Part shown: positions 1 through 13,179 of the stretch, one piece after another
How positions within the stretch are numbered: the first letter of the stretch is position 1
Layout: each line of letters begins with the position of its first letter
Source: a virus
Lineage: Duplodnaviria; Heunggongvirae; Uroviricota; Caudoviricetes
IMG/VR virus record: IMGVR_UViG_2698536576_000003
Span: 1-13,179 of that record
Direction: 5' to 3' (one strand)
Length of the DNA stretch: 13,179 nucleotides
Position numbers and translations under genes: made by a program
Notes under the pieces: model-generated
Told to the model about the DNA's origin: nothing
What the model saw: the letters and a program-made list of their open reading frames with translations, nothing else
The model's database searches: none

Positions 1-14
1 TTGCAGTAATGAAA

Positions 15-839
15 TCAGGCGGTGAAAGTACCAATAAAGGTTTCTACTTTGCTGTCTTTGAATTTCTCAACAAGCAGATCACGAAATTCGTTAGCCATTT
101 CTTCCTGCACCGCTTCCAGCTGAATAATGCGCAGAACCAGTACAGGACGATCGCCAGTGATAATGCTGAGGCGTAATTTAAACGGACGTTCTTTCAGACC
201 TTCAAACGGAACGCATTTAAATTCAAATGCCACTGGCATAATGTCTTTGGTCTTCGCTTCGACAGACTCCATCAGGGAGCGTTTGCCGCTGAAGTCATTA
301 TCTTCAAAATCAGCGGTCTGGTTTGCTTCAATCGTGATTTTACGGACTGCCGCAGCCGCTTTTGTTGCTTGAATGGCGTCACCATTAGCATCAAAGCCCA
401 CAAGGTAGTCGGCCCAGTCTTCGATCCATTCTGCCAGTGACTTCTGGGAGTTACGCTCGCCGTTAACAGACAACAGAGCAGAGAACGGTGCTGTCTTTTT
501 CAGTTTGAGAGTGGCAGTGTTATCTGCGTGACCTGGCTCATCAATAGTACCCAGGTTAAGCACACTGACGGCACGCATATTATCGGCATCGATAAAGCAG
601 CGGGTGCCTTCATCTGCAAGATCTTTAGAATAACGGGTAAAATCATCGATGCTGGCAGTGGAAAGTGCACCACGGAAACGGAAGCGATTTAAATTAAATT
701 TTTCCAGATCATGAATGCGGAAATTCTCAGGCAATGCCACAGCATCGGCACCAATCTTACTGATAATTTCATTAACACCCTGAGCAGAAATAAGGGCATG
801 GATTTGATTAATTGCGGTTGCGTCTAAGTTCTGAGACAT
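15..839 (-). CDS. DUF2303-family prophage protein (YfdQ-like), 274 aa
   Basis: Complete ORF on minus strand: ATG at 839-837 with GAGGAC Shine-Dalgarno (rc of 845-850), TGA at 17-15. Length and N-terminus ([12 protein letters not shown]...) match my recollection of the CPS-53 YfdQ/DUF2303 family; no catalytic motif recognised. Confidence 0.75.
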
Positions 840-904
840 AATAAGTCCTCACTATATAAAGATATTCAGTGATGAGATAAATAATCAGTTTATTACGAAC
901 GATA

Positions 905-1267
905 TTAACGACCTGCTGCGCGGAGTTTTCCGTCAGGTTCACCGGCAAGAGTCAGTAATTGTCCCTGGTCTTCCTGCAGAATAGTCAGGCGACCACCGCG
1001 ATTGACATACATCGGCGTTTCGGTGGTGTCTTCTTCGGAAATTTTCCCGCGGTTAGTTGGGCGAACATATGAGAGTTTGTGTTTGATTTTCACACGGTTC
1101 TCATCAAACGGTTCGATTTCCAGATTGAGTGAGACCTTCCCTTTGGTTTTCGTGTTCATCACACCGGAAGCGACCTCACTGAGAACTGCGCCGATTTTGG
1201 TTTCAAATACGCCGCCGTCCAGCTCCCCGATAAATGCCTGCACATCAGTACTGCGTTCGCTAGCCAT
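905..1267 (-). CDS. hypothetical prophage protein (YfdP-like), 120 aa
   Basis: ORF track gives 905..1432, but the first ATG with a strong RBS (GAGGAG, rc of 1275-1280) is at 1267-1265 (MASERSTDVQAF...). It sits 65 bp upstream of, and co-oriented with, the YfdQ-like gene, as yfdP-yfdQ do in CPS-53. Confidence 0.7.
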   Translation of the reverse strand: MASERSTDVQAFIGELDGGVFETKIGAVLSEVASGVMNTKTKGKVSLNLEIEPFDENRVKIKHKLSYVRPTNRGKISEEDTTETPMYVNRGGRLTILQEDQGQLLTLAGEPDGKLRAAGR

Positions 1268-1677
1268 TTTGCTGCTCCTCATCATATCGACCCTGCAAGG
1301 TCGGTTGGTTTCTCCACAAAACAGAGAAGAACACCTGCGGTGGCAGCCGCCCGGATGGATTGGGTTATGAGCCCGTCGTCCGGTGATGCTCTTCTCTGTT
1401 TTGCAAAAAAGGACGGTACCAGCCGGAAGCAAGGGTACAAACTGGTACCGCCAGGACTACACACAGCATAAAGTTGTGGTGCCGGGTGCCTCCCGGTGCC
1501 TGGCGAAGGTTGCACACCAGGCGGGTGGGTATCCACAGAAGGTCGACTGTCAGCCTCAACCTTAACCCGCGTGCGCTGAGCCGCATTCACCACAACGCTA
1601 AGGATTCTCTCTGGTTGAAAATACTTAGCTGTTATGTGCCTGCTTTTAGCCACATCAGGCGAGGTGGACCTGGTTAT

Positions 1678-1723
1678 TCCCCAACAACAAGGATTCGGTT
1701 AATCTGGATATCCCCAACAACAA
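1678..1723 (+). promoter_or_regulatory. two perfect 13-bp direct repeats TCCCCAACAACAA (1678-1690 and 1711-1723), 33 bp centre to centre, upstream of the zinc-ribbon gene
   Basis: Exact 13/13 direct repeat seen in the sequence; 3-helical-turn spacing and position 38 bp upstream of the 1762 ATG suggest a protein-binding or leader element. Function is inference. Confidence 0.3.
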
Positions 1724-1761
1724 TAAGAGTATTCAATGTGATCGCTGAATTAACGGCAGCA

Positions 1762-2253
1762 ATGACGGCTATTTGTGAAACAGCCCAGATTGCAAAACTA
1801 ATGAACGAGGCAAAAACTCAAGCTGAAGTAAATGCGGCTATTGGTGAGCTGAACTCAAAGCTTGCGTCTATTCAGCGCGAATGCGTGTCTCTCGTTGAAC
1901 TGGTGGGCTCTTATCAAGAAATAAATGCTTCTCTCAAAGCTAAAATTGCAGAATTCGAAAACTTTGAGGCTCAGACGGAAGGCTATATCCTTAACCAACT
2001 TGAGTCGGGTACTTTTGTATACTCGAAGGAGGTAATCGTGAACGGTGGCAGCATAACCATGCATCTTTGCCCAAAATGTTTTGGACAAAAGATAGTATCG
2101 ATACTTCAACCATTCCCGGTTAGCGAAGATGAGCTTTTTCATAAAAGCAGGTGCCTCCACTGTGAAAATAAGTTTCTGATGAATAAAAATCCGGATTACG
2201 TATCGCCTCCATCCATTGAGGAGTTGTCCAGAAAACTTAACGGCAATCTGTAG
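1762..2253 (+). CDS. hypothetical protein, N-terminal coiled-coil and C-terminal CxxC-(x25)-CxxC zinc-ribbon, ~163 aa
   Basis: Frame is open from 1474 (TTG) to TAG at 2251-2253; the first ATG is 1762 (alternative GTG 1738), after the GC-rich region ends. The N-terminal half is heptad-like (AKLMNEAKTQAEVNAAIGELNSKLASIQ...); the C-terminal half has CPKC and CLHC. It occupies the nin/Q-proximal slot upstream of quuD. No family recognised. Confidence 0.6.
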   Translation: MTAICETAQIAKLMNEAKTQAEVNAAIGELNSKLASIQRECVSLVELVGSYQEINASLKAKIAEFENFEAQTEGYILNQLESGTFVYSKEVIVNGGSITMHLCPKCFGQKIVSILQPFPVSEDELFHKSRCLHCENKFLMNKNPDYVSPPSIEELSRKLNGNL

Positions 2254-2378
2254 ATTACTACTGTTGTGGATACCGTGGCATTTGAAGAGAAGTATGGCTC
2301 CCAGCTGGAGCTGATATTTCGTTTTATCGATCGCGCACTGGCGATTGGTGTGCTGGCCTGATTTTGTGGAGAAAGTTA

Positions 2379-2762
2379 ATGCGTGATATTCAGATGGTTC
2401 TTGAACGTTGGGGAGCGTGGGCGGCTAATAATCATGAAGATGTGACCTGGTCGTCCATTGCCGCCGGTTTTAAGGGATTAATTCCTTCAAAAGTAAAATC
2501 TCGCCCGCAATGTTGTGACGATGACGCGATGATCATTTGCGGGTGCATGGCCCGTCTGAAAAAGAACAACAGCGATTTGCACGATTTATTAGTAGATTAT
2601 TATGTAGTCGGTATGACATTCATGTCACTGGCAGGTAAGCATTGCTGCTCTGATGGTTATATCGGGAAAAGGTTACAGAAGGCTGAGGGCATAATTGAAG
2701 GGATGTTAATGGCATTAGATATCCGGTTAGAGATGGATATCGTTGTTAATAACTCTAATTAA
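2379..2762 (+). CDS. quuD: late-gene antitermination protein Q (phage 82/DLP12 QuuD type), 127 aa
   Basis: ATG at 2379 with GGAGAAAG RBS; the ORF track's TTG at 2364 adds 5 residues. Sequence [24 protein letters not shown]... matches QuuD as I recall it; position immediately upstream of the lysis region. Confidence 0.85.
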
Positions 2763-2789
2763 TATGCCAATTGTTTACTGAAAGTTATT

Positions 2790-2815
2790 AAAAATGGGGC
2801 GTTGCAACGCCCCCA
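2790..2815 (-). terminator. rho-independent terminator of the nmpC/ipeX transcript
   Basis: On the minus strand, GGGGGCGTTGCAACGCCCC stem-loop (2815-2796) followed directly by ATTTTT (2795-2790). Confidence 0.6.
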
Positions 2816-2903
2816 AAAATAAAGGGTAATATATAACAGAAGGTTTATATAGTTAGAAGCAAGGTTGTGCTCCTAAAGGAAGTGGCTTGAGGGAGCCACT
2901 TAT

Positions 2904-2941
2904 ATGTTGGGGAGGCAACGCCTCCCGCAACATATCTTTTT
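2904..2941 (+). terminator. possible plus-strand intrinsic terminator downstream of quuD
   Basis: 13-bp stem with one mismatch (ATGTTGGGGAGGC / GCCTCCCGCAACAT, 4-nt loop) followed by ATCTTTTT on the plus strand; the same hairpin lies in the nmpC 3' UTR on the other strand. Confidence 0.3.
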
Positions 2942-2951
2942 CGTAATCAGA

Positions 2952-4049
2952 TTAGAACTGGTAAACCAGACCTACAGCAACGATGTCATCAGTGCTTACA
3001 CCGAGTGCTTTAGTGAAGTCATTTTTGTCAAGCAGGTTGATTTTGTAATCAACGAAAGTAGACATATTTTTGTTGAAGTAATAGGTTGCACCTACATCAA
3101 CATATTTGACTAAGTCCTGATCGCCCCATACTCCAAGATCCTTACCTTTAGATTGCAGGTAAGCAACGGACGGACGCAGACCGAAATCGAACTGATATTG
3201 TGCAACAGCTTCGAAGTTTTGAGCTTTATTAGCAACGAAGTGATCAGCAAATACAGTCATATTCTGGGTTTCAGAATAGGTAGTGGCCAGGTAAATGTTG
3301 TTAGCGTCATATTTCAGACCTGCGGCCCAAACTTCTGCATTTTTACCGGAAGCAAATACTTCAGGAAGAACTTTCCCTGCATTAACTTGAGTGTCGGTAC
3401 GATCAGATTTCGCATAAGTTGCACCGATACCGAATCCTTCGTATTCATAGGTAGCAGAGAAACCGAAGCCATCACCGTTACCTTCGGTGTAGTTATCGAA
3501 ATCGCTACGATCGTTTTTGCCTTGGTACTGAGCAGCAAAGTTCAGACCATCAACCAGACCAAAGAAGTCGTTGTTACGATAGGTTGCAACACCAGTGGTG
3601 CGACCAGTCATGAACACATCTGTTTGGGTCCAGGTATCGCCACCGAATTCTGGCAGAACGTCAGTCCACGCACCGATGTCGTATGCTACACCGTAGTTAC
3701 GGCCGTAATCGATTGAGCCGTAGTCACCGAATTTCAGGCCTGCAAATGCAAGACGGGTTTTGTCTTTGGAGGAACCTTGAGATTCAGCGCGGTTGCCTTT
3801 GAATTCATATTCCCACTGACCGAAACCAGTCAGCTGATCGTTGATTTGGGTTTCGCCTTTGAAGCCCAGACGAACATAAGTAGTATCACCATCATCTGCA
3901 TCGTTAGAGGAAAAGTAGTGCTTGGCATTAACTTTCCCGTACAGATCCAGCTTGTTACTGTCTTTATTATAAATTTCAGCTGCCTGAGCAGACATCGCCA
4001 TCAGTACTGATGCAGCTACAGCAGAAATTGCCACTGTTAATTTTTTCAT
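2952..4049 (-). CDS. nmpC: outer membrane porin NmpC (OmpD/OmpC family), 365 aa, apparently intact
   Basis: Full-length ORF: ATG at 4049-4047, TAA at 2954-2952. Signal peptide [23 protein letters not shown], beta-barrel porin composition, C-terminal ...GLVYQF. Sits between Q and the holin, opposite to the late operon (moron). Confidence 0.9.
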
Positions 4050-4378
4050 CGTGAGCCCTTTTTTTTGAACTATTATTAAAAAATGATGTCACTGCGCGAT
4101 AAATATTCATCTAATCAATGTGATTATTTCAAGATGTAAGTTTTAGTTTCTCATTTAATTTGTGAAGTAGATCTCTATTTTTATCTGAACTTTTTCTATC
4201 GAAACCTATTTATGGCTCTTATTTGAACAAAAATAAATCTATTAGCTAATTTATATTAATGGCTGTTATTTATGGTGGTTCTATAATTCGTCTGTTTAAT
4301 TTAAACCGGCTAAAAATAACACTGGAAATTATTTATTGGTTATTTGTTGAGGTTTTCTTATGTATTTGTGGTGATGTT

Positions 4379-4407
4379 TTGAACACTCGGTAGCATTCTC
4401 ATAAATA
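4379..4407 (+). promoter_or_regulatory. candidate late promoter (pR'-like) upstream of the lysis cassette
   Basis: TTGAAC (4379-4384), 16-bp spacer, ATAAAT (4401-4406); perfect 12-bp palindrome TTACGTACGTAA at 4420-4431 just downstream. Lies ~230 bp upstream of essD. Inference from sigma70 consensus only. Confidence 0.3.
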
Positions 4408-4526
4408 TCATTCAGTGGTTTACGTACGTAAAAAATTGGTTATGCTGTTAAGAGTGGTTACTTCGTCACACAGCTTAAACCCGCCGTCGAGCTGGTTTTT
4501 CCATTTTTTGAGTCTCGATATTAGCT

Positions 4527-4585
4527 GATAACTCAATACCTGAGTTATTCACTGACTCGGAGTCAGTTACGTTTCTGCTTTTTTG
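4527..4585 (+). terminator. tandem hairpins plus T-run upstream of essD (tR'-like terminator candidate)
   Basis: Hairpin 1 GATAACTCA..TGAGTTATT (4528-4549); hairpin 2 perfect palindrome ACTGACTC-G-GAGTCAGT (4551-4567); T-run CTTTTTT at 4579-4585. Layout resembles lambdoid pR' - short RNA - tR', where Q acts. The gap between stem and T-run is atypical. Confidence 0.3.
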
Positions 4586-4637
4586 CGATACGTTGTATTC
4601 CCTCAATTTACACCCGCTTTGTCTGCGAGGTGGGGTT

Positions 4638-4853
4638 ATGAAATTCATGGATAAGTTAACAACTGGAGTCGCCTATGGCACCTCAGCAGGTAGTGCCGGT
4701 TACTGGTTTTTACAGCTGCTCGATAAAGTCACTCCCTCACAGTGGGCAGCAATAGGTGTGCTGGGTAGCCTGGTATTTGGCCTGCTGACGTACCTGACAA
4801 ACCTTTATTTCAAGATTAAAGAAGATAAGCGCAAGGCTGCGAGAGGTGAATAA
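4638..4853 (+). CDS. essD: phage-21-type class II holin (pinholin, S21-like), 71 aa, dual-start motif
   Basis: ATG at 4638 with GAGGTG RBS and a second ATG at 4647 (MKFMDK dual start). Two predicted TM segments ([18 protein letters not shown]; [22 protein letters not shown]), basic C-terminus. TAA overlaps the next gene's ATG. ORF track start 4593 is an upstream extension. Confidence 0.9.
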
Positions 4854-5350
4854 TGCCTCCATCATTACGAAAAGCCGTTGCTGCTGCTATTGGTGGCGGA
4901 GCAATTGCTATAGCATCAGTGTTAATCACTGGCCCAAGTGGTAACGATGGTCTGGAAGGTGTCAGCTACATACCATACAAAGATATTGTTGGTGTATGGA
5001 CTGTATGTCACGGACACACCGGAAAAGACATCATGCTCGGTAAAACGTATACCAAAGCAGAATGCAAAGCACTCTTGAATAAAGACCTTGCCACTGTCGC
5101 CAGACAAATTAACCCGTATATCAAAGTCGATATACCGGAAACAACGCGCGGCGCTCTTTACTCATTCGTTTACAATGTGGGTGCTGGCAATTTTAGAACA
5201 TCGACGCTTCTTCGCAAAATAAACCAGGGCGATATCAAAGGCGCATGTGATCAGCTGCGTCGCTGGACATACGCTGGCGGTAAGCAATGGAAAGGCCTGA
5301 TGACTCGTCGTGAGATTGAGCGTGAAGTCTGTTTGTGGGGGCAACAGTGA
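4853..5350 (+). CDS. rrrD: SAR (signal-arrest-release) endolysin, T4-lysozyme-like muramidase, 165 aa
   Basis: N-terminal Gly/Ala-rich weakly hydrophobic segment ([20 protein letters not shown]) typical of SAR domains; Glu-x8-Asp-x5-Thr catalytic spacing ([17 protein letters not shown]). Start overlaps holin stop (TAATG). Confidence 0.9.
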
Positions 5351-5808
5351 GCAGAGTAACCGCGATTATATCCGCTCTGATTATCTGCATCATCGTCAGC
5401 CTGTCATGGGCGGTCAATCATTACCGTGATAACGCAATCGCCTACAAAGCCCAGCGCGACAAAAATGCCAGAGAACTGAAGCTAGCGAACGCGGCAATTA
5501 CTGACATGCAGATGCGTCAGCGTGATGTTGCTGCGCTCGATGCAAAATACACGAAGGAGTTAGCTGATGCGAAAGCTGAAAATGATGCTCTGCGTGATGA
5601 TGTTGCCGCTGGTCGTCGTCGGTTGCACATCAAAGCAGTCTGTCAGTCAGTGCGTGAAGCCACCACGGCCTCCGGCGTGGATAATGCAGCCTCCCCCCGA
5701 CTGGCAGACACCGCTGAACGGGATTATTTCACCCTCAGAGAGAGGCTGATCACTATGCAAAAACAACTGGAAGGAACCCAGAAGTATATTAATGAGCAGT
5801 GCAGATAG
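5347..5808 (+). CDS. rzpD: spanin inner-membrane subunit Rz (i-spanin), 153 aa
   Basis: GTG at 5347 overlapping the endolysin TGA (5348-5350) gives [26 protein letters not shown]..., the lambda Rz-like N-terminus with TM segment then coiled-coil. The ORF track's 5335 start adds 4 residues. Confidence 0.85.
5567..5749 (+). CDS. rzoD: spanin outer-membrane lipoprotein subunit Rz1 (o-spanin), 60 aa, embedded in the +1 frame of rzpD
   Basis: ATG at 5567 preceded by AAGGAG (5553-5558); lipobox LVVVGC; proline-rich mature region ([16 protein letters not shown]). Entirely inside the Rz ORF in another frame. Confidence 0.85.
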
Positions 5809-5839
5809 AGCTGACCATATCGATGGGCAACTCATGCAA

Positions 5840-6133
5840 TTATTTTGAGCAATACACACGCGCTTCCAGCGGAGTATAAATGCCTAAAGTAATAAAACCG
5901 AGCAATCCATTTACGAATGTTTGCTGGGTTTCTGTTTTAACAACATTTTCTGCGCCGCCACAAATTTTGGCTGCATCGACAGTTTTCTTCTGCCCAATTC
6001 CAGAAACGAAGAAATGATGGGTGATGGTTTCCTTTGGTGCTACTGCTGTCTGTTTGTTTTGAACAGTAAACGTCTGTTGAGCACATCCTGTAATAAGCAG
6101 GGCCAGCGCAGTAGCGAGTAGCATTTTTTTCAT
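5840..6133 (-). CDS. borD: Bor lipoprotein (serum-resistance protein family), 97 aa
   Basis: ATG at 6133-6131; lipoprotein signal MKKMLLATALALLITGC; ends ...ARVYCSK as lambda Bor does (recalled); convergent with Rz as in lambda/DLP12. Confidence 0.9.
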   Translation of the reverse strand: MKKMLLATALALLITGCAQQTFTVQNKQTAVAPKETITHHFFVSGIGQKKTVDAAKICGGAENVVKTETQQTFVNGLLGFITLGIYTPLEARVYCSK

Positions 6134-6423
6134 GGTGTTATTCCCGATGCTTTTTGAAGTTCGCAGAATCGTATGTGTAGAAAATTAAACAAACCCTAAA
6201 CAATGAGTTGAAATTTCATATTGTTAATATTTATTAATGTATGTCAGGTGCGATGAATCGTCATTGTATTCCCGGATTAACTATGTCCACAGCCCTGACG
6301 GGGAACTTCTCTGCGGGAGTGTCCGGGAATAATTAAAAACGATGCACACAGGGTTTAGCGCGTACACGTATTGCATTATGCCAACGCCCCGGTGCTGACA
6401 CGGAAGAAACCGGACGTTATGAT

Positions 6424-6834
6424 TTAGCGTGGAAAGATTTGTGTAGTGTTCTGAATGCTCTCAGTAAATAGTAATGAATTATCAAAGGTATAGTAATATC
6501 TTTTATGTTCGTGGATATTTGTAACCCATCGGAAAACTCCTGCTTTAGCAAGATTTTCCCTGTATTGCTGAAATGTGATTTCTCTTGATTTCAACCTATC
6601 AAAGGACGTTTCTATAAGATGCGTATTTCTTGAGAATTTAACATTTACAACCTTTTTAAGTCCTTTTATTAACACAGTGTTATCGTTTTCTAACACAATG
6701 TGAATATTATCTGTGGCTAGATAGTAAATATAATGTGAGACATTGTGACGTTTTAGTTCAGAATAAAACAATTCACAGTTTAAATCTTTTCGCACTTGAT
6801 CGAATATTTCTTTAAAAATGGCAACCTGAGCCAT
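6424..6834 (-). CDS. ybcV: DUF1398-family protein YbcV-like, 136 aa
   Basis: ORF open to 6957 (177 aa), but the ATG at 6834-6832 has a GGAAGG RBS about 10 nt upstream and gives the 136-aa length I recall for YbcV ([18 protein letters not shown]...). Alternative starts at 6870 and 6957 cannot be excluded. Confidence 0.7.
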
Positions 6835-7119
6835 TGGTAAAACCTTCCATGTGATACGAGGGCGCGTAGTTTGCATTATCGTTTTTATCGTTTCAATCTG
6901 GTCTGACCTCTTTGTGTTTTGTTGATGATTTATGTCAAATATTAGGAATGTTTTCAATTAATAGTATTGGTTGTGTAACAAAGTGCGGTCCTGCTGGCAT
7001 TCTGGAGGGAAATACAACCGACAGATGTATGTAAGGCCAACGTGCTCAAATCTTCATACAGAAAGATTTGAAGTAATATTTTAACCGCTAGATGAAGAGC
7101 AAGCGCATGGAGCGACAAA

Positions 7120-7326
7120 ATGAATAAAGAACAATCTGCTGATGATCCCTCCGTGGATCTGATTCGTGTAAAAAATATGCTTAATAGCACCATTTCTATG
7201 AGTTACCCTGATGTTGTAATTGCATGTATAGAACATAAGGTGTCTCTGGAAGCATTCAGGGCAATTGAGGCAGCGTTGGTGAAGCACGATAATAATATGA
7301 AGGATTATTCCCTGGTGGTTGACTGA
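7120..7326 (+). CDS. ybcW: small prophage protein YbcW-like, 68 aa
   Basis: ATG at 7120, TGA at 7324-7326; divergent from ybcV; matches the lambda/DLP12 right-end gene order. Confidence 0.7.
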
Positions 7327-7490
7327 TCACCATAACTGCTAATCATTCAAACTACTTAACCTGTGACAGAGCCAACACGCAGTCTGTCACTGTCAGGAAA
7401 GTGGTAAAACTGCAACTCAATTACTGCAATGCCCTCGTAATTAAGTGAATTTACAATATCGTCCTGTTCGGAGGGAAGAACGCGGGATGT

Positions 7491-7685
7491 TCATTCTTCA
7501 TCACTTTTAATTGATGTATATGCTCTCTTTTCTGACGTTAGCCTCCGACGGCAGGCTTCAATGACCCAGGCTGAGAAATTCCCGGACCCTTTTTGATCAA
7601 GAGCGATGTTAATTTGTTCAATCATTTGGTTAGGAAAGCGGATGTTGCGGGTTGTTGTTCTGCGGGTTCTGTTCTTCGTTGACAT
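7491..7685 (-). CDS. ylcI: YlcI-like small protein (DUF3950), probable ribbon-helix-helix DNA-binding fold, 64 aa
   Basis: ATG at 7685-7683; Arg-rich N-terminus, then an RHH-like pattern (RNIRFPNQMIEQINIALDQKG...SAWVIEACRRRL). Directly left of the cos site. Confidence 0.7.
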   Translation of the reverse strand: MSTKNRTRRTTTRNIRFPNQMIEQINIALDQKGSGNFSAWVIEACRRRLTSEKRAYTSIKSDEE

Positions 7686-7849
7686 GAGGTTGCCCCGTAT
7701 TCAGTGTCGCTGATTTGTATTGTCTGAAGTTGTTTTTACGTTAAGTTGATGCGGATCAATTAATACGATACCTGCGTCATAATTGATTATTTGACGTGGT
7801 TTGATGGCGTAGATGCACGTTGTGACATGTAGATGATAATTATTATCAT

Positions 7850-8060
7850 TTTGCGGGTCCTTTCCGGCGATCCGACAGGTTACGGGGCGGCGACCTCGCG
7901 GGTTTTCGCTATTTATGAAAATTTTCCGGTTTAAGGCGTTTCCGTTCTTCTTCGTCATAACTTAATGTTTTTATTTAAAATACCCTCTGAAAAGAAAGGA
8001 AACGACAGGTGCTGAAAACGGGCTTTTTGGCCACTGTCGTTTCCTTTCTCTGTTTTTGTC
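7850..8060 (+). other. cos: lambda-type cos site (cosQ - cosN - cosB); cosN 12-nt cohesive-end sequence GGGCGGCGACCT at 7885-7896
   Basis: Exact lambda left-end sequence GGGCGGCGACCTCGCGGGTTTTCGCTATTTATGAAAATTTTCCGG... begins at 7885, preceded by ...ACAGGTTACG, and is followed by the cosB region leading into the Nu1 start at 8074. Confidence 0.9.
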
Positions 8061-8073
8061 CGTGGAATGAACA

Positions 8074-8593
8074 ATGGAAGTCAACAAAAAGCAGCTGGCT
8101 GAAATTTTCGGCGCGAGTATCCGTACCATTCAGAACTGGCAGGAGCAGGGAATGCCCGTTCTGCGAGGCGGTGGGAAGGGTAATGAGGTGCTTTATGACT
8201 CTGCCGCCGTCATAAAATGGTATGCCGAAAGGGATGCTGAAATTGAGAACGAAAAGCTGCGCCGGGAGGTTGAAGAACTGCGACAGGCCAGCGAGACAGA
8301 TCTCCAGCCAGGGACTATTGAGTACGAACGCCATCGACTTACGCGTGCGCAGGCCGACGCACAGGAGCTGAAAAATGCCAGAGACTCCGCTGAAGTGGTG
8401 GAAACCGCATTCTGTACTTTCGTGCTGTCGCGGATCGCAGGTGAAATTGCCAGTATTCTCGACGGGATCCCCCTGTCGGTGCAGCGGCGTTTTCCGGAAC
8501 TGGAAAACCGACATGTTGATTTCCTGAAACGGGATATCATCAAAGCCATGAACAAAGCAGCCGCGCTGGATGAACTGATACCGGGGTTGCTGA

Positions 8594-8619
<26 letters not shown>
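8074..8619 (+). CDS. nohD: terminase small subunit Nu1, 181 aa
   Basis: MEVNKKQLAEIFGASIRTIQNWQEQGMPVLRGGGKGNEVLYDSAAVIKWY... is essentially lambda gpNu1 (winged-helix N-terminus); 26-nt overlap with the A start, as in lambda. Confidence 0.93.
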
Positions 8620-11078
<2,459 letters not shown>

Positions 11079-11178
11079 AAACAGCCTATGACAATGCCGA
11101 GAAACGTCTGCAGAAAGATCAGAACGGTGCGGATATCCCTGGCAAAGACACCTTTACGAAAAATATTGGTGCCTGGCC

Positions 11179-11706
11179 GGAACTAATGAATTTATTGGTG
11201 AAGGTGATGCATATATTCCGCCTCATACAGGTCTGCCAGCAAACAGTACCGATATTGCACCACCAGATATTCCTGCTGGCTTTGTGGCTGTTTTCAACAG
11301 TGATGAGGCATCGTGGCATCTCGTTGAAGATCATCGGGGTAAAACGGTTTATGACGTGGCTTCCGGCGACGCGTTATTTATTTCTGAACTCGGCTCATTA
11401 CCGGAAAATGTCACCTGGTTATCCCCGGAAGGGGAGTTTCAGAAGTGGAACGGCACAGCTTGGGTGAAGGATACGGAAGCAGAAAAACTGTTCCGGATCC
11501 GTGAGGCGGAAGAAACAAAAAACAGCCTGATGCAGGTAGCCAGTGAGCATATAGCGCCGCTTCAGGATGCTGTGGATCTGGAGATCGCAACGGAGGAAGA
11601 AACCTTGTTGCTGGAAGCCTGGAAAAAGTATCGGGTGTTGCTGAACCGTGTTGATACATCAACTGCACCTGATATTGAGTGGCCTACGAACCCTGTCAGG
11701 GAGTAA
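11179..11706 (+). pseudogene. tfaD: tail fibre assembly protein Tfa remnant (lacks first ~16 codons and start codon)
   Basis: Frame reads [60 protein letters not shown]...[22 protein letters not shown], matching lambda Tfa from about residue 17 to the C-terminus. Upstream in this frame there is no ATG; the first in-frame start is GTG at 11284 (ORF track, 140 aa). Confidence 0.75.
11543..11660 (+). repeat. direct repeat copy 1: tfa 3'-end segment (~118 bp)
   Basis: AGTGAGCATATAGCGCCGCTTCAGGATGCTGTGGATCTGGAGATCGCAACGGAGGAAGAAACC... aligns by eye at roughly 80-85% identity with 12591-12710, same orientation. Confidence 0.75.
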
Positions 11707-11760
11707 TCATTGGGATTATGCCGCAGCACGTCTTAAGCAAGAACGTGCTGCGGTTGGATG

Positions 11761-12429
11761 CTATTTTTTCCCTGAAGCGGAAAACATTACTACAGTACCT
11801 TGAACCTTGGTTTTAACATTCTCGAAATGCTCTGAGAGTATATGTGTTAAGCCTTCTTCGGAATCTTTTGTGTTTGAAAAGATGCCTTTCTGATTGTAAA
11901 TGCGCATCAGTTTTTGACCGAAGCTATTGTGCACAACTCCATCGCCAAGAATTGTGGCTCCGTATAGAGTTCCATCGTCAGTTAAGGCCTGCGCCGCATT
12001 GCGTATTACACAGCTTTTTGTAGATATATTTCCAGGCAGGCAGTGAAGAAGGTAAAACATGGAAATGGAATCAAATTGACCATGTAACGCCGCGGGATAA
12101 GGTTCAAAAACATCATGGCTAATTTTATGTTTAATTTTTGATTCCCCAGCCCTTGTAGATGCCGCGTTCAGGCTAGCTTCGTTCAAATCCATTAAAGATA
12201 TCAGACTACTCTCAGGTACGTGAGTAAGGTAAAACCCAGTTCCAACACCAATATCCAGATGGTTGTTACCTAAATGTTCCAGAAAGTGTGGAAGAAGGTG
12301 TTCCTTTGTAGGACATCCCCATGCAAGCCGATTTGATACTCCCAAAACCCACCAGTCATAAAGCTTTAGGGTAAGTGGTGTGTAAATTTTAGCCCCATCA
12401 TCTGTGTTTTTTTTCATTAATTTCACCAT
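11761..12429 (-). CDS. ybcY: class I SAM-dependent methyltransferase (YbcY-like), 218-222 aa
   Basis: Minus-strand ORF with SAM-binding motif I HLDIGVGTGFY. The first ATG (12429) lacks an RBS; the ATG at 12417 (MKKNTDDG...) has GGTGAAA 5 nt upstream, so the true start is probably 12417. Antisense to the flanking tfa-derived sequences. Confidence 0.8.
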   Translation of the reverse strand: MVKLMKKNTDDGAKIYTPLTLKLYDWWVLGVSNRLAWGCPTKEHLLPHFLEHLGNNHLDIGVGTGFYLTHVPESSLISLMDLNEASLNAASTRAGESKIKHKISHDVFEPYPAALHGQFDSISMFYLLHCLPGNISTKSCVIRNAAQALTDDGTLYGATILGDGVVHNSFGQKLMRIYNQKGIFSNTKDSEEGLTHILSEHFENVKTKVQGTVVMFSASGKK

Positions 12430-12485
12430 GTTATAGTTTTATTTGTGAATTAAATCAATTATGGCGATGAATTACAAGGGGTTAA

Positions 12486-12791
12486 ATGCTGCCGCAGCAT
12501 AGCGATATTGAAATAGCCTGGTATGCTTCGATACAACAGGAGCCGAATGGCTGGAAGACCGTCACCACACAGTTCTACATCCAGGAATTCAGTGAGTATA
12601 TTGCGCCACTGCAGGATGCTGTAGATCTGGAAATCGCAACGGAGGAAGAAAGATCGTTGCTGGAGGCATGGAATAAATATCGGGTATTGTTGAATCGAGT
12701 TGATACATCAGTAGCTCTGGGTATGAAGCTGTTTGTAACTCATGTTACAGTAACAGTTATTACTATCTCGAAGGTGCAAAATGTATATTGA
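12486..12791 (+). CDS. tfaX: TfaX-like protein containing a tail-fibre-assembly C-terminal segment, 101 aa
   Basis: ATG at 12486 with AAGGGG RBS; the middle of the protein ([37 protein letters not shown]) duplicates the Tfa C-terminus; the N- and C-terminal parts are unrelated. Likely a chimeric remnant, possibly expressed. Confidence 0.55.
12591..12710 (+). repeat. direct repeat copy 2: tfa 3'-end segment (~120 bp)
   Basis: AGTGAGTATATTGCGCCACTGCAGGATGCTGTAGATCTGGAAATCGCAACGGAGGAAGAAAGA... pairs with 11543-11660. Confidence 0.75.
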
Positions 12792-12881
12792 TTTGATATT
12801 TTATAAATTTACTTCGAATCTGGCACGTCAACTTTTGATTAAAGTAATATCAGTTTTCGGCGAAAAAAGGACCGTGTACAT

Positions 12882-13179
12882 GGTGATGCTGCCAACTTAC
12901 TGATTTAGTGTATGATGGTGTTTTTGAGGTGCTCCAGTGGCTTCTGTTTCTATCAGCTGTCCCTCCTGTTCAGCTACTGACGGGGTGGTGCGTAACGGCA
13001 AAAGCACCGCCGGACATCAGCGCTATCTCTGCTCTCACTGCCGTAAAACATGGCAACTGCAGTTCACTTACACCGCTTCTCAACCCGGTACGCACCAGAA
13101 AATCATTGATATGGCCATGAATGGCGTTGGATGCCGGGCAACCGCCCGCATTATGGGCGTTGGCCTCAACACGATTTTA
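12882..13179 (+). mobile_element. IS1 insertion sequence, left end (continues beyond the window)
   Basis: Starts with the IS1 terminal inverted repeat GGTGATGCTGCCAACTTACTGATTTAGTGTATGATGGTG at 12882 and matches IS1 through to the window end. Confidence 0.92.
12937..13179 (+). CDS. insA: IS1 InsA (transposition repressor), N-terminal 81 codons, truncated by the window edge
   Basis: GTG at 12937 gives (M)[80 protein letters not shown]. Absent from the ORF track because there is no stop inside the window; the track's 12908..13120 ORF is a different, spurious frame. Confidence 0.88.

Follow-up and report, generated by a model that had tools for sequence, protein, structure and literature searches.

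Which kind of gene stands behind a pair of exact 13-bp repeats close to gene Q of an Escherichia coli prophage, and what do the repeats do? The question is raised by positions 1678–2253 of IMG/VR virus record IMGVR_UViG_2698536576_000003 (Caudoviricetes), of which the whole analysed stretch, positions 1 to 13,179 and 13,179 nucleotides long, is called here the window. A prediction made from the letters alone had placed there an uncharacterised coiled-coil/zinc-ribbon protein, encoded where lambdoid phages usually carry nin-region genes and preceded by the repeats. From the analysis presented here, positions 1738–2253 appear to be a Rip1-family single-gene prophage defence on its own sieB-type promoter, acting in the way proposed below, and a probability of about 0.72 is assigned to this reading. 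It is built on homology, fold, start codon, purifying selection, genomic slot and the colinearity of the promoter with the annotated sieB promoter of phage P22.

Rip1 was originally reported from a Pseudomonas aeruginosa prophage (Patel et al., 2026, Nature 651:1060, as cited in PMC13434031), where its locus lies between the small and large terminase genes (PMC13434031). It is a prophage-encoded single protein, non-toxic alone, with homologues that are widespread in Proteobacteria, mainly in prophages; escaper phages of Pseudomonas map to the portal, those of E. coli to the small terminase. In the structure obtained by cryo-electron microscopy, 12 Rip1 subunits are arranged around the 11-mer ring of the small terminase, and Rip1 complexes permeabilise liposomes and cells (PMC13434031, PMC12908700, bioRxiv 10.64898/2026.04.30.721860). 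The N-terminal part is a pore-forming amphipathic helix, while the C-terminal half contacts the small-terminase ring (PMC13434031).

The gene in the window and the two halves of its product are located as follows.

1738–2253, plus strand: coding sequence (CDS) of the 171-amino-acid Rip1-family protein, with GTG start and TAG stop, identified by phrog_1244, PDB chain 9oox_L, Foldseek, substitution rates and automatic annotation.
1744–1974, plus strand: N-terminal helical half (AlphaFold2 helices at residues 3–23 and 28–79).
1987–2187, plus strand: C-terminal beta-rich zinc-ribbon domain with C111, C114, C139 and C142 and the SILQP motif (strands within residues 84–150).

The protein is a new, divergent, full-length member of the known Rip1 family, as assigned by sequence homology together with a fold match. 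Among the PHROGs families it belongs to phrog_1244 ('unknown function'; E 7.6e-59), which is also matched by Rip1 of phage HK446, HkaP of HK620 and gp30 of JBD30 (E 1e-51 to 1e-61 for the four proteins). A phmmer search of the single protein against the PDB returned only chain L of entry 9oox, labelled 'ring interacting pore 1 (Rip1)' (E 2.9e-7), with residues 20–150 of the query aligned to residues 30–159 of the chain and both CxxC pairs in register; a profile of 29 homologues matched the same chain at E 9.1e-20 (profile positions 5–151 of 165, chain residues 15–160 of 164). The title of the entry is 'Escherichia phage HK446 Rip1 in complex with the Enterobacteria phage T6 small terminase'. 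Moreover, the AlphaFold2 model (mean predicted local distance difference test score 91) consists of two helices, at residues 3–23 and 28–79, followed by a beta-rich part at residues 84–150, and in a Foldseek search against the PDB only 9oox_L and 9oox_M were found at E < 1e-3 (5e-7 and 8e-7), with probability 1.00, 28% identity and target-normalised template modelling (TM) scores of 0.53 and 0.71. Structure prediction had been suggested with the original prediction as a check, and the only significant PDB matches of the model are Rip1 chains.

The architecture read from the letters, with its helical N-terminal half and its C-terminal four-cysteine zinc ribbon, agrees with the model, in which two helices are followed by the beta-rich domain that carries the putative zinc ribbon. 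The cysteines are C111 and C114 (CPKC, nucleotides 2068–2079) and C139 and C142 (CLHC, nucleotides 2152–2163), all four of which are invariant in the 29 close homologues; within the SILQP motif of the same proteins L123 and P125 are invariant and I122 nearly so (at least 90%). Across the four clades represented by the window protein, HK446 Rip1, HkaP and JBD30 gp30, the invariant residues are the four cysteines, V94, Y95, I122, L123 and P125. The family is large, with 2742 clusters (50% identity) in phrog_1244/Rip1 at E <= 1e-3, and several clusters of nearly identical proteins represent dozens to hundreds of sequences each. What does not hold is the description of the protein as uncharacterised: a clear match to a characterised protein was found, to a family with a cryo-electron microscopy structure, yet not to a nin protein.

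From 1474 onwards the reading frame contains no stop until the TAG at 2251–2253; the original prediction had given about 163 residues, counted from the ATG at 1762, with the GTG at 1738 and positions further upstream as alternative starts. It is the GTG that stands: the protein has 171 amino acids from GTG 1738, and ATG 1762 is internal, because three lines of evidence agree. All of the 29 full-length homologues (41–92% identity) start with M-I-A-E-L at the codon that corresponds to GTG 1738; the GTGAT, together with an (A/G)AGAG upstream of it, is kept in diverged loci, where the coding sequences share 64–80% identity; and the Prokaryotic Genome Annotation Pipeline (PGAP) calls the same CDS of 171 amino acids, WP_000559922.1 ('hypothetical protein'), at an E. 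coli locus of identical sequence. The ratio of nonsynonymous to synonymous substitution rates (dN/dS, by the method of Nei and Gojobori) is 0.15–0.25 against three homologues, and the gene is therefore a real protein-coding gene under purifying selection. The records of the inducible phages PhiR49_1 and PhiR29_1 give instead a CDS of 242 amino acids (locus L001, PV340568, 4237–4965, and locus L002, PV340556, 4262–4990), which starts at a GTG equivalent to window position 1525 and runs through the upstream block and both repeats, each of which would be translated as 'SPTT'. This CDS is an over-extension. Translation from farther upstream in the open frame was rejected in view of the common MIAEL start of the homologues and of the annotated P22 RNA start, which falls at the second repeat.

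As for the repeats, they are present as had been described, 33 bp apart from start to start: TCCCCAACAACAA occurs exactly twice, at 1678–1690 and 1711–1723, and is the sole exact 13-mer in the window to recur within 50 nt. A close 13-mer repeat of this kind appeared in only 11 of 1000 dinucleotide-preserving shuffles, in agreement with the earlier view that the pair exceeds chance. The exact 13-mer forms the core of a longer, imperfect repeat of about 20 bp, CTGGTTATTCCCCAACAACAA at 1670–1690 and CTGGATATCCCCAACAACAA at 1704–1723, with the consensus CTGG(T/A)TAT(T)CCCCAACAACAA. Aligned with other phages, the repeats prove to be the paired boxes, R1 and R2, of a promoter cassette common to sieB of lambda and P22, hkaP of HK620 and rip1 of HK446. 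The parts of the cassette in the window are the following.

1637–1667, plus strand: conserved upstream block TGCCTGCTTTTAGCCACATCAGGCGAGGTGG, nearly invariant in lambda sieB, P22 sieB, HK620 hkaP and HK446 rip1.
1678–1690, plus strand: box R1, TCCCCAACAACAA, which by homology overlaps the -35 region and aligns with the P22 box R1 CCCCTACAG (L135:3695-3703) in the annotated sieB promoter.
1700–1705, plus strand: probable, weak -10 hexamer TAATCT, overlapping GTTAAT at 1698–1703 and lying 5 nt before R2.
1711–1723, plus strand: box R2, TCCCCAACAACAA, the predicted 5' end of the mRNA, with the start at about 1710–1711.
1725–1729, plus strand: Shine-Dalgarno sequence AAGAG, 8 nt before the start codon; (A/G)AGAG is kept at loci L007, L010 and L011.

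In HK620 hkaP, lambda sieB, P22 sieB and HK446 rip1 these parts are colinear, with the block followed by a box, a TAnnnT linker, the same box again, a Shine-Dalgarno sequence and the start codon; there the box is CCCCTACAG and its second copy lies 34 bp downstream of the first. The block has the consensus (T)GCCTG(T)CTTTTAACCACNTCAGGCnnGGTGG, and window positions 1637–1667 align with it in lambda, P22, HK620 and HK446. This promoter is already known, since it is annotated for P22 sieB: in record BK000583 it extends from box 1 through the hexamer TAAACT, and the 'sieB RNA start site' (L135:3728) immediately precedes the R2 box CCCCTACAG (3729–3737), 7 nt downstream of TAAACT. The window cassette matches the type, with its boxes 33 bp apart and a TAnnnT hexamer before R2, though the -10 element agrees with the consensus at only 3/6 positions. 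From the alignment with the annotated P22 RNA start, R1 is predicted to lie over the -35 region and R2 to open the mRNA, so that the earlier placement of both repeats in the leader would be right for the second box, which would be transcribed, and wrong for the first. Furthermore, the 109 nt before the start codon are 82–86% identical between loci whose synonymous sites differ by 43–72%, and the DNA farther upstream is 47–62% identical, near background in two of the three loci.

A further question concerns the place of the gene. The window is a DLP12-like defective prophage beside tRNA-Arg, between fimZ and cusS, and 80% or more of it is found in at least 95 complete E. coli genomes. It contains, in this order, the integrase gene (with an internal stop), yfdT, yfdR, yfdQ, yfdP, the Rip1-family gene, a DUF968 remnant and quuD (Q), followed by the porin gene, essD-rrrD-rzpD, bor, nohD, the large terminase gene and a truncated portal gene; repressor/immunity and replication genes are absent from the window prophage. 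Two intact phages, PhiR49_1 and PhiR29_1, carry this DNA, at 99.8% identity over window positions 1400–2272, between the early-left genes (here yfdP) and cI, and the copy of the protein that they encode is 98.8% identical. All the homologues examined are lone genes on the strand opposite to their neighbours and beside the immunity region, JBD30 being the exception in position only: the homologue of Salmonella lies between cro and the replication genes, that of E. coli between dicB and the repressor gene, that of Citrobacter between xis and cI, and those of HK620, HK630 and HK446 between cIII and N, which is the sieB slot of lambda and P22. The gene is thus not at a nin position, contrary to what had been thought from the window; that it is no standard nin gene was seen correctly, as its immunity-side location and the lack of a significant Pfam or NCBIfam match both indicate.

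The gene is indeed followed by Q, identified as quuD (PF06530; PGAP start at window position 2379), but not immediately, as a DUF968 remnant (2269–2361), annotated by PGAP as a truncated pseudogene, lies in between. The adjacency is secondary and comes from a rearrangement, because the similarity to PhiR49_1 stops at about 2272 and that of the Q region begins at 2268.

2268–2272, no strand: rearrangement junction; by megablast, PV340568 (PhiR49_1) covers 1400–2272, and Kati ('HNH endonuclease', 'Q-like') is matched from 2268.

At this junction (window 2268–2361 and locus L003, NZ_CP031105) a sieB-slot moron is seen fused, 19 bp after its stop codon, to the truncated DUF968 gene and then to quuD, as in a deletion or recombinant prophage; its native 3' flank is gone, and transcription from the moron promoter might read into Q.

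Taken together, the gene would be a moron complete in itself, with a sigma-70 promoter of its own that is of the lambda/P22 sieB type and in which the block at 1637–1667, R1 over the -35 region and TAATCT at 1700–1705 would direct a start near 1710. The mRNA would begin with box R2 and have a leader of about 27 nt, and the protein would be made in the lysogen and be harmless alone. When a superinfecting phage makes its ring-shaped late protein (the small terminase or the portal for characterised Rip1), the C-terminal zinc-ribbon domain would bind around the phage ring, which would template a Rip1 ring, and the N-terminal amphipathic helices would then breach the inner membrane, aborting the infection. 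Such a mode of action is suggested because the window protein shares the two-part architecture of Rip1; expression, anti-phage activity, trigger and pore formation are all proposed by analogy.

Several points weigh against this proposal. The host prophage is defective, given the internal stop in the integrase gene and the missing immunity and replication regions; the -10 hexamer matches the consensus at 3/6 positions, and a consensus sigma-70 scan of 1200–2450 reported no promoter. Searches of Pfam, NCBIfam and PADLOC (2023) gave only sub-threshold coiled-coil noise. The query-normalised TM scores of the Rip1 matches are modest (0.40–0.55), and the PDB chains model 124–126 of 164 residues. Identity to the Rip1-family proteins compared is 27–31%, and the C-terminal, trigger-binding domain is more variable, which means that neither trigger nor activity is transferable with certainty. 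Moreover, the mechanism of Rip1 is taken from secondary sources, and the P22 RNA start from a database annotation.

How far does the cassette extend beyond this gene? A scan of viral contigs with the block core yielded at least 120 loci, at which about 30 unrelated clusters of genes stand behind the block. Among them are true SieB (PF14163), several Rip1-family clades and phrog_5286, 3311, 6315, 3983 and 8894, of unknown function, the last five being candidate exclusion or defence genes. Small zinc-ribbon and small membrane proteins, likewise of unknown function and candidates of the same kind, are also encoded behind the block (L014–L133), and the phrog_5286 proteins have 144–148 amino acids. 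Upstream of the block the sequences are unrelated between loci, often with the start of a divergent gene within 10–40 nt. Two boxes are present in 44 of 89 distinct leaders, always 32–36 bp apart (33 bp in 25 and 34 bp in 14), and in most of these 44 a TAnnnT hexamer lies 5–8 nt before box 2; it is TATAAT in seven (L010, L015, L049, L051, L069, L081 and L085), and in most leaders of type A, the window included, the best hexamer has 3/6 matches to the consensus. The box types are CCCCAACAACAA, CCCCTACAG, CCACAGTCAA, CCCCAATGCAA and CCCCCACAA, and within one leader the type is the same at both positions; in L010 and L015, for example, the backbone is shared and both boxes differ. A given box type can stand before different genes, and the boxes of Rip1-family genes are of more than one type, so the boxes do not act as operators for the protein encoded downstream.

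Leaders with a single unit have a feature of their own. In 25 distinct leaders of this kind, TATNCT after GGTGG is the 5' arm of a hairpin whose other arm is the Shine-Dalgarno sequence, and in 21 of the 25 predicted folds the N is Watson-Crick paired, with all four pair types represented (e.g., L014:3684, L019:4462, L035 and L122). It follows that some transcript, by read-through or antisense, contains both arms. Such pairing is unexpected if TATNCT is only a -10 element; in these leaders it would be a -10 and an anti-Shine-Dalgarno element at once. The block together with TATNCT was also considered as a promoter, with -35 TTAACC and extended -10 TGGTATNCT; this fits the single-unit leaders and is ruled out in the window, where the equivalent is ACCTGG. 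Compared by eye with sigma-32, sigma-E, sigma-54, CRP, IHF, LexA, PhoB and OmpR sites, the block fitted none convincingly.

From these data it can be suggested, tentatively, that the TCCCCAACAACAA boxes may be one allele of a widespread modular cassette, made of a near-invariant 31-bp block and one or two units of -10 element, C/A-rich box and Shine-Dalgarno sequence, which would drive dozens of unrelated, oppositely oriented genes in enterobacterial prophages, those of SieB and Rip1 among them. The co-variation of the boxes within leaders and, in single-unit leaders, the complementarity of the -10 element to the ribosome-binding site would point to a regulatory mechanism that may involve a box-specific factor or a discrimination between promoter-initiated and read-through or antisense transcripts. 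In a limited literature search the generality of the cassette and its co-varying boxes were not found described, which is no proof of novelty.

With respect to what the boxes do, it is most likely, though weakly supported, that a promoter-leader unit has been duplicated and the duplicate maintained; R2 would then serve as an unstructured, C/A-rich 5' leader, and R1 would lie across the -35 region. Operator-like sites rank next and an RNA-level element last. As operators, the boxes would be DNA sites for a sequence-specific regulator that brackets the -10 element, one over -35 and one at +2 to +14, and switches the moron off or on, for instance in the prophage's own lytic growth. This is unlikely, even if it would account for boxes that are identical within a leader and differ between leader types, for a spacing held at 32–36 bp, for the joint change of both boxes on similar backbones (L010 vs L015) and for the conservation of the leader against synonymous divergence described above; no flanking protein family tracks the leader or box type, a search of the window and of about 10 kb of intact phage found neither a reverse complement, which could have been an antisense partner, nor an extra copy of the box, and 33–34 bp is not an integral number of helical turns. 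In addition, box type B is common to lambda, P22 and HK620, whereas the annotations of their repressor and N-like genes point to similarity with different phages; the phages' own repressors and antiterminators are therefore unlikely binders. Doubts are greater about a region acting as RNA, in which a longer transcript, begun at or before the block, would form hairpins that show the boxes in loops and hide the ribosome-binding site, the annotated P22 5' end then being a processing site. The pairing of TATNCT with the Shine-Dalgarno sequence in the single-unit folds speaks for it, as do the inverted repeats that flank both boxes in lambda, P22 and HK620 (TTCTCG...CGAGAA and CTCT...AGAG); but pairing between the arms on either side of the boxes is poor in the window (CCTGG with CAAGG, GGATA with TATTC), the plus strand of the leader matches no Rfam family, and the unrelated sequence upstream of the block, with its divergent gene starts, leaves no conserved upstream promoter. 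Three leader types have a TAnnnT hexamer, often the exact TATAAT, at a constant distance ahead of R2, which speaks instead for a real promoter between the boxes. A minus-strand RNA, such as the sas antisense RNA of P22 or read-through from pL, was considered as well as an explanation of the conservation.

With regard to the gene itself, it could be an inert passenger, intact and either no longer usefully expressed or left without a trigger in a decayed DLP12-like prophage, or its subfamily could have a role other than defence. The defective prophage, the weak -10 hexamer, the replacement of the native 3' flank 19 bp after the stop codon and the failure of every defence-model library to recognise the protein are all in line with this. 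Purifying selection, an intact frame almost identical in product to that of the inducible PhiR49_1 and PhiR29_1, the presence of most of the window in so many complete E. coli genomes and the near-identical protein clusters with dozens to hundreds of members each make it improbable. Most improbable by far is a novel nin-region zinc-ribbon/coiled-coil DNA-binding protein with the repeats as its binding sites, for which only the zinc ribbon and the position next to Q speak; in intact phages the gene is outside the nin region, these boxes are also found before unrelated genes, boxes of other types stand before Rip1-family genes, and the full-length homology and fold match to Rip1 already contradict it.

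Other observations were made in the surrounding DNA. On the minus strand, positions 1403–1626 give a full-length match to the Rfam family STnc100 (RF02076; model positions 1–206), at 40.3 bits against a gathering score of 47 (E 1.6e-7), and the region ends in a strong terminator-like hairpin (arms at 1414–1422 and 1442–1450) followed by a T-run at 1404–1410 on the same strand. A weak DicF match overlaps this hairpin, and the STnc100-like region lies in the early-left transcription unit between the Rip1-like gene and yfdP, a placement that resembles that of DicF in Qin. It overlaps a 123-amino-acid open reading frame on the minus strand (1282–1653) with a short match to phrog_33599 (E 3.7e-15, residues 82–117), and it is unlikely that both readings are right; the PGAP annotation has a hypothetical, frameshifted pseudogene at 1282–1593. 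Between Q and the lysis genes, at the nmpC position of DLP12, a seemingly intact porin of 365 amino acids is encoded on the minus strand (2952–4049; PF00267, E 1.8e-156).

If these proposals hold, a protein called 'hypothetical' in E. coli databases gains a specific putative function, with a trigger specificity that could differ from that of HK446 Rip1, and a recurring mis-annotation, the 242-amino-acid CDS drawn through a promoter, is corrected. Because Rip1, SieB and about 30 other small families share one cassette and one prophage slot, the cassette marks a lambdoid defence hotspot and offers a cheap route to nominate exclusion genes; should it be modular as suggested, the block could serve as a sequence beacon for new small anti-phage genes. 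The co-varying boxes, moreover, raise a concrete regulatory question.

How does the system compare with those already known? With SieB of lambda and P22 (PF14163) it shares the genomic slot, the orientation against pL and the promoter cassette, made up of the block, two boxes and a -10 hexamer between them. SieB is expressed from the prophage and aborts superinfecting phages, an activity that by analogy may extend to the window protein. In contrast, SieB is an unrelated membrane protein, and P22 sieB also has an internal Esc start and the sas antisense RNA; the window protein does not match PF14163, which a true SieB encoded behind the same block matches at E 3e-25. The homologues of JBD30 (gp30) and of DMS3-like Pseudomonas phages (Casadabanvirus) resemble the window protein in family (phrog_1244, E 2.7e-61), in length (164 amino acids) and in their opposite strand. 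They differ in their identity of 29–31%, in having no sieB-type block upstream and in occupying a putative structural-gene slot rather than an immunity-proximal one; JBD30 gp30 lies between two long, oppositely oriented open reading frames, which is compatible with the original Rip1 locus as given in the review. HkaP of HK620 and HK630, annotated as 'putative superinfection exclusion protein', is another phrog_1244 protein of 164 amino acids, encoded on the opposite strand in the slot between cIII and N behind the same block and paired boxes, 34 bp apart; at 28–29% identity, it forms a clade distinct from both HK446 Rip1 and the window protein. From HK446 Rip1, finally, the window protein differs by its 27% identity, by a leader of type A (CCCCAACAACAA) instead of type B (CCCCTACAG), and by a gene that starts with GTG and adjoins Q in a defective prophage. 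Both are phrog_1244 proteins of similar length (164 amino acids for HK446 Rip1 and 171 here), with a helical N-terminal half, a C-terminal beta/zinc-ribbon part, four aligned cysteines and an I-L-x-P core, and in both cases the gene is a lone, oppositely oriented prophage gene, with that of HK446 in the sieB slot and preceded by the same promoter block.

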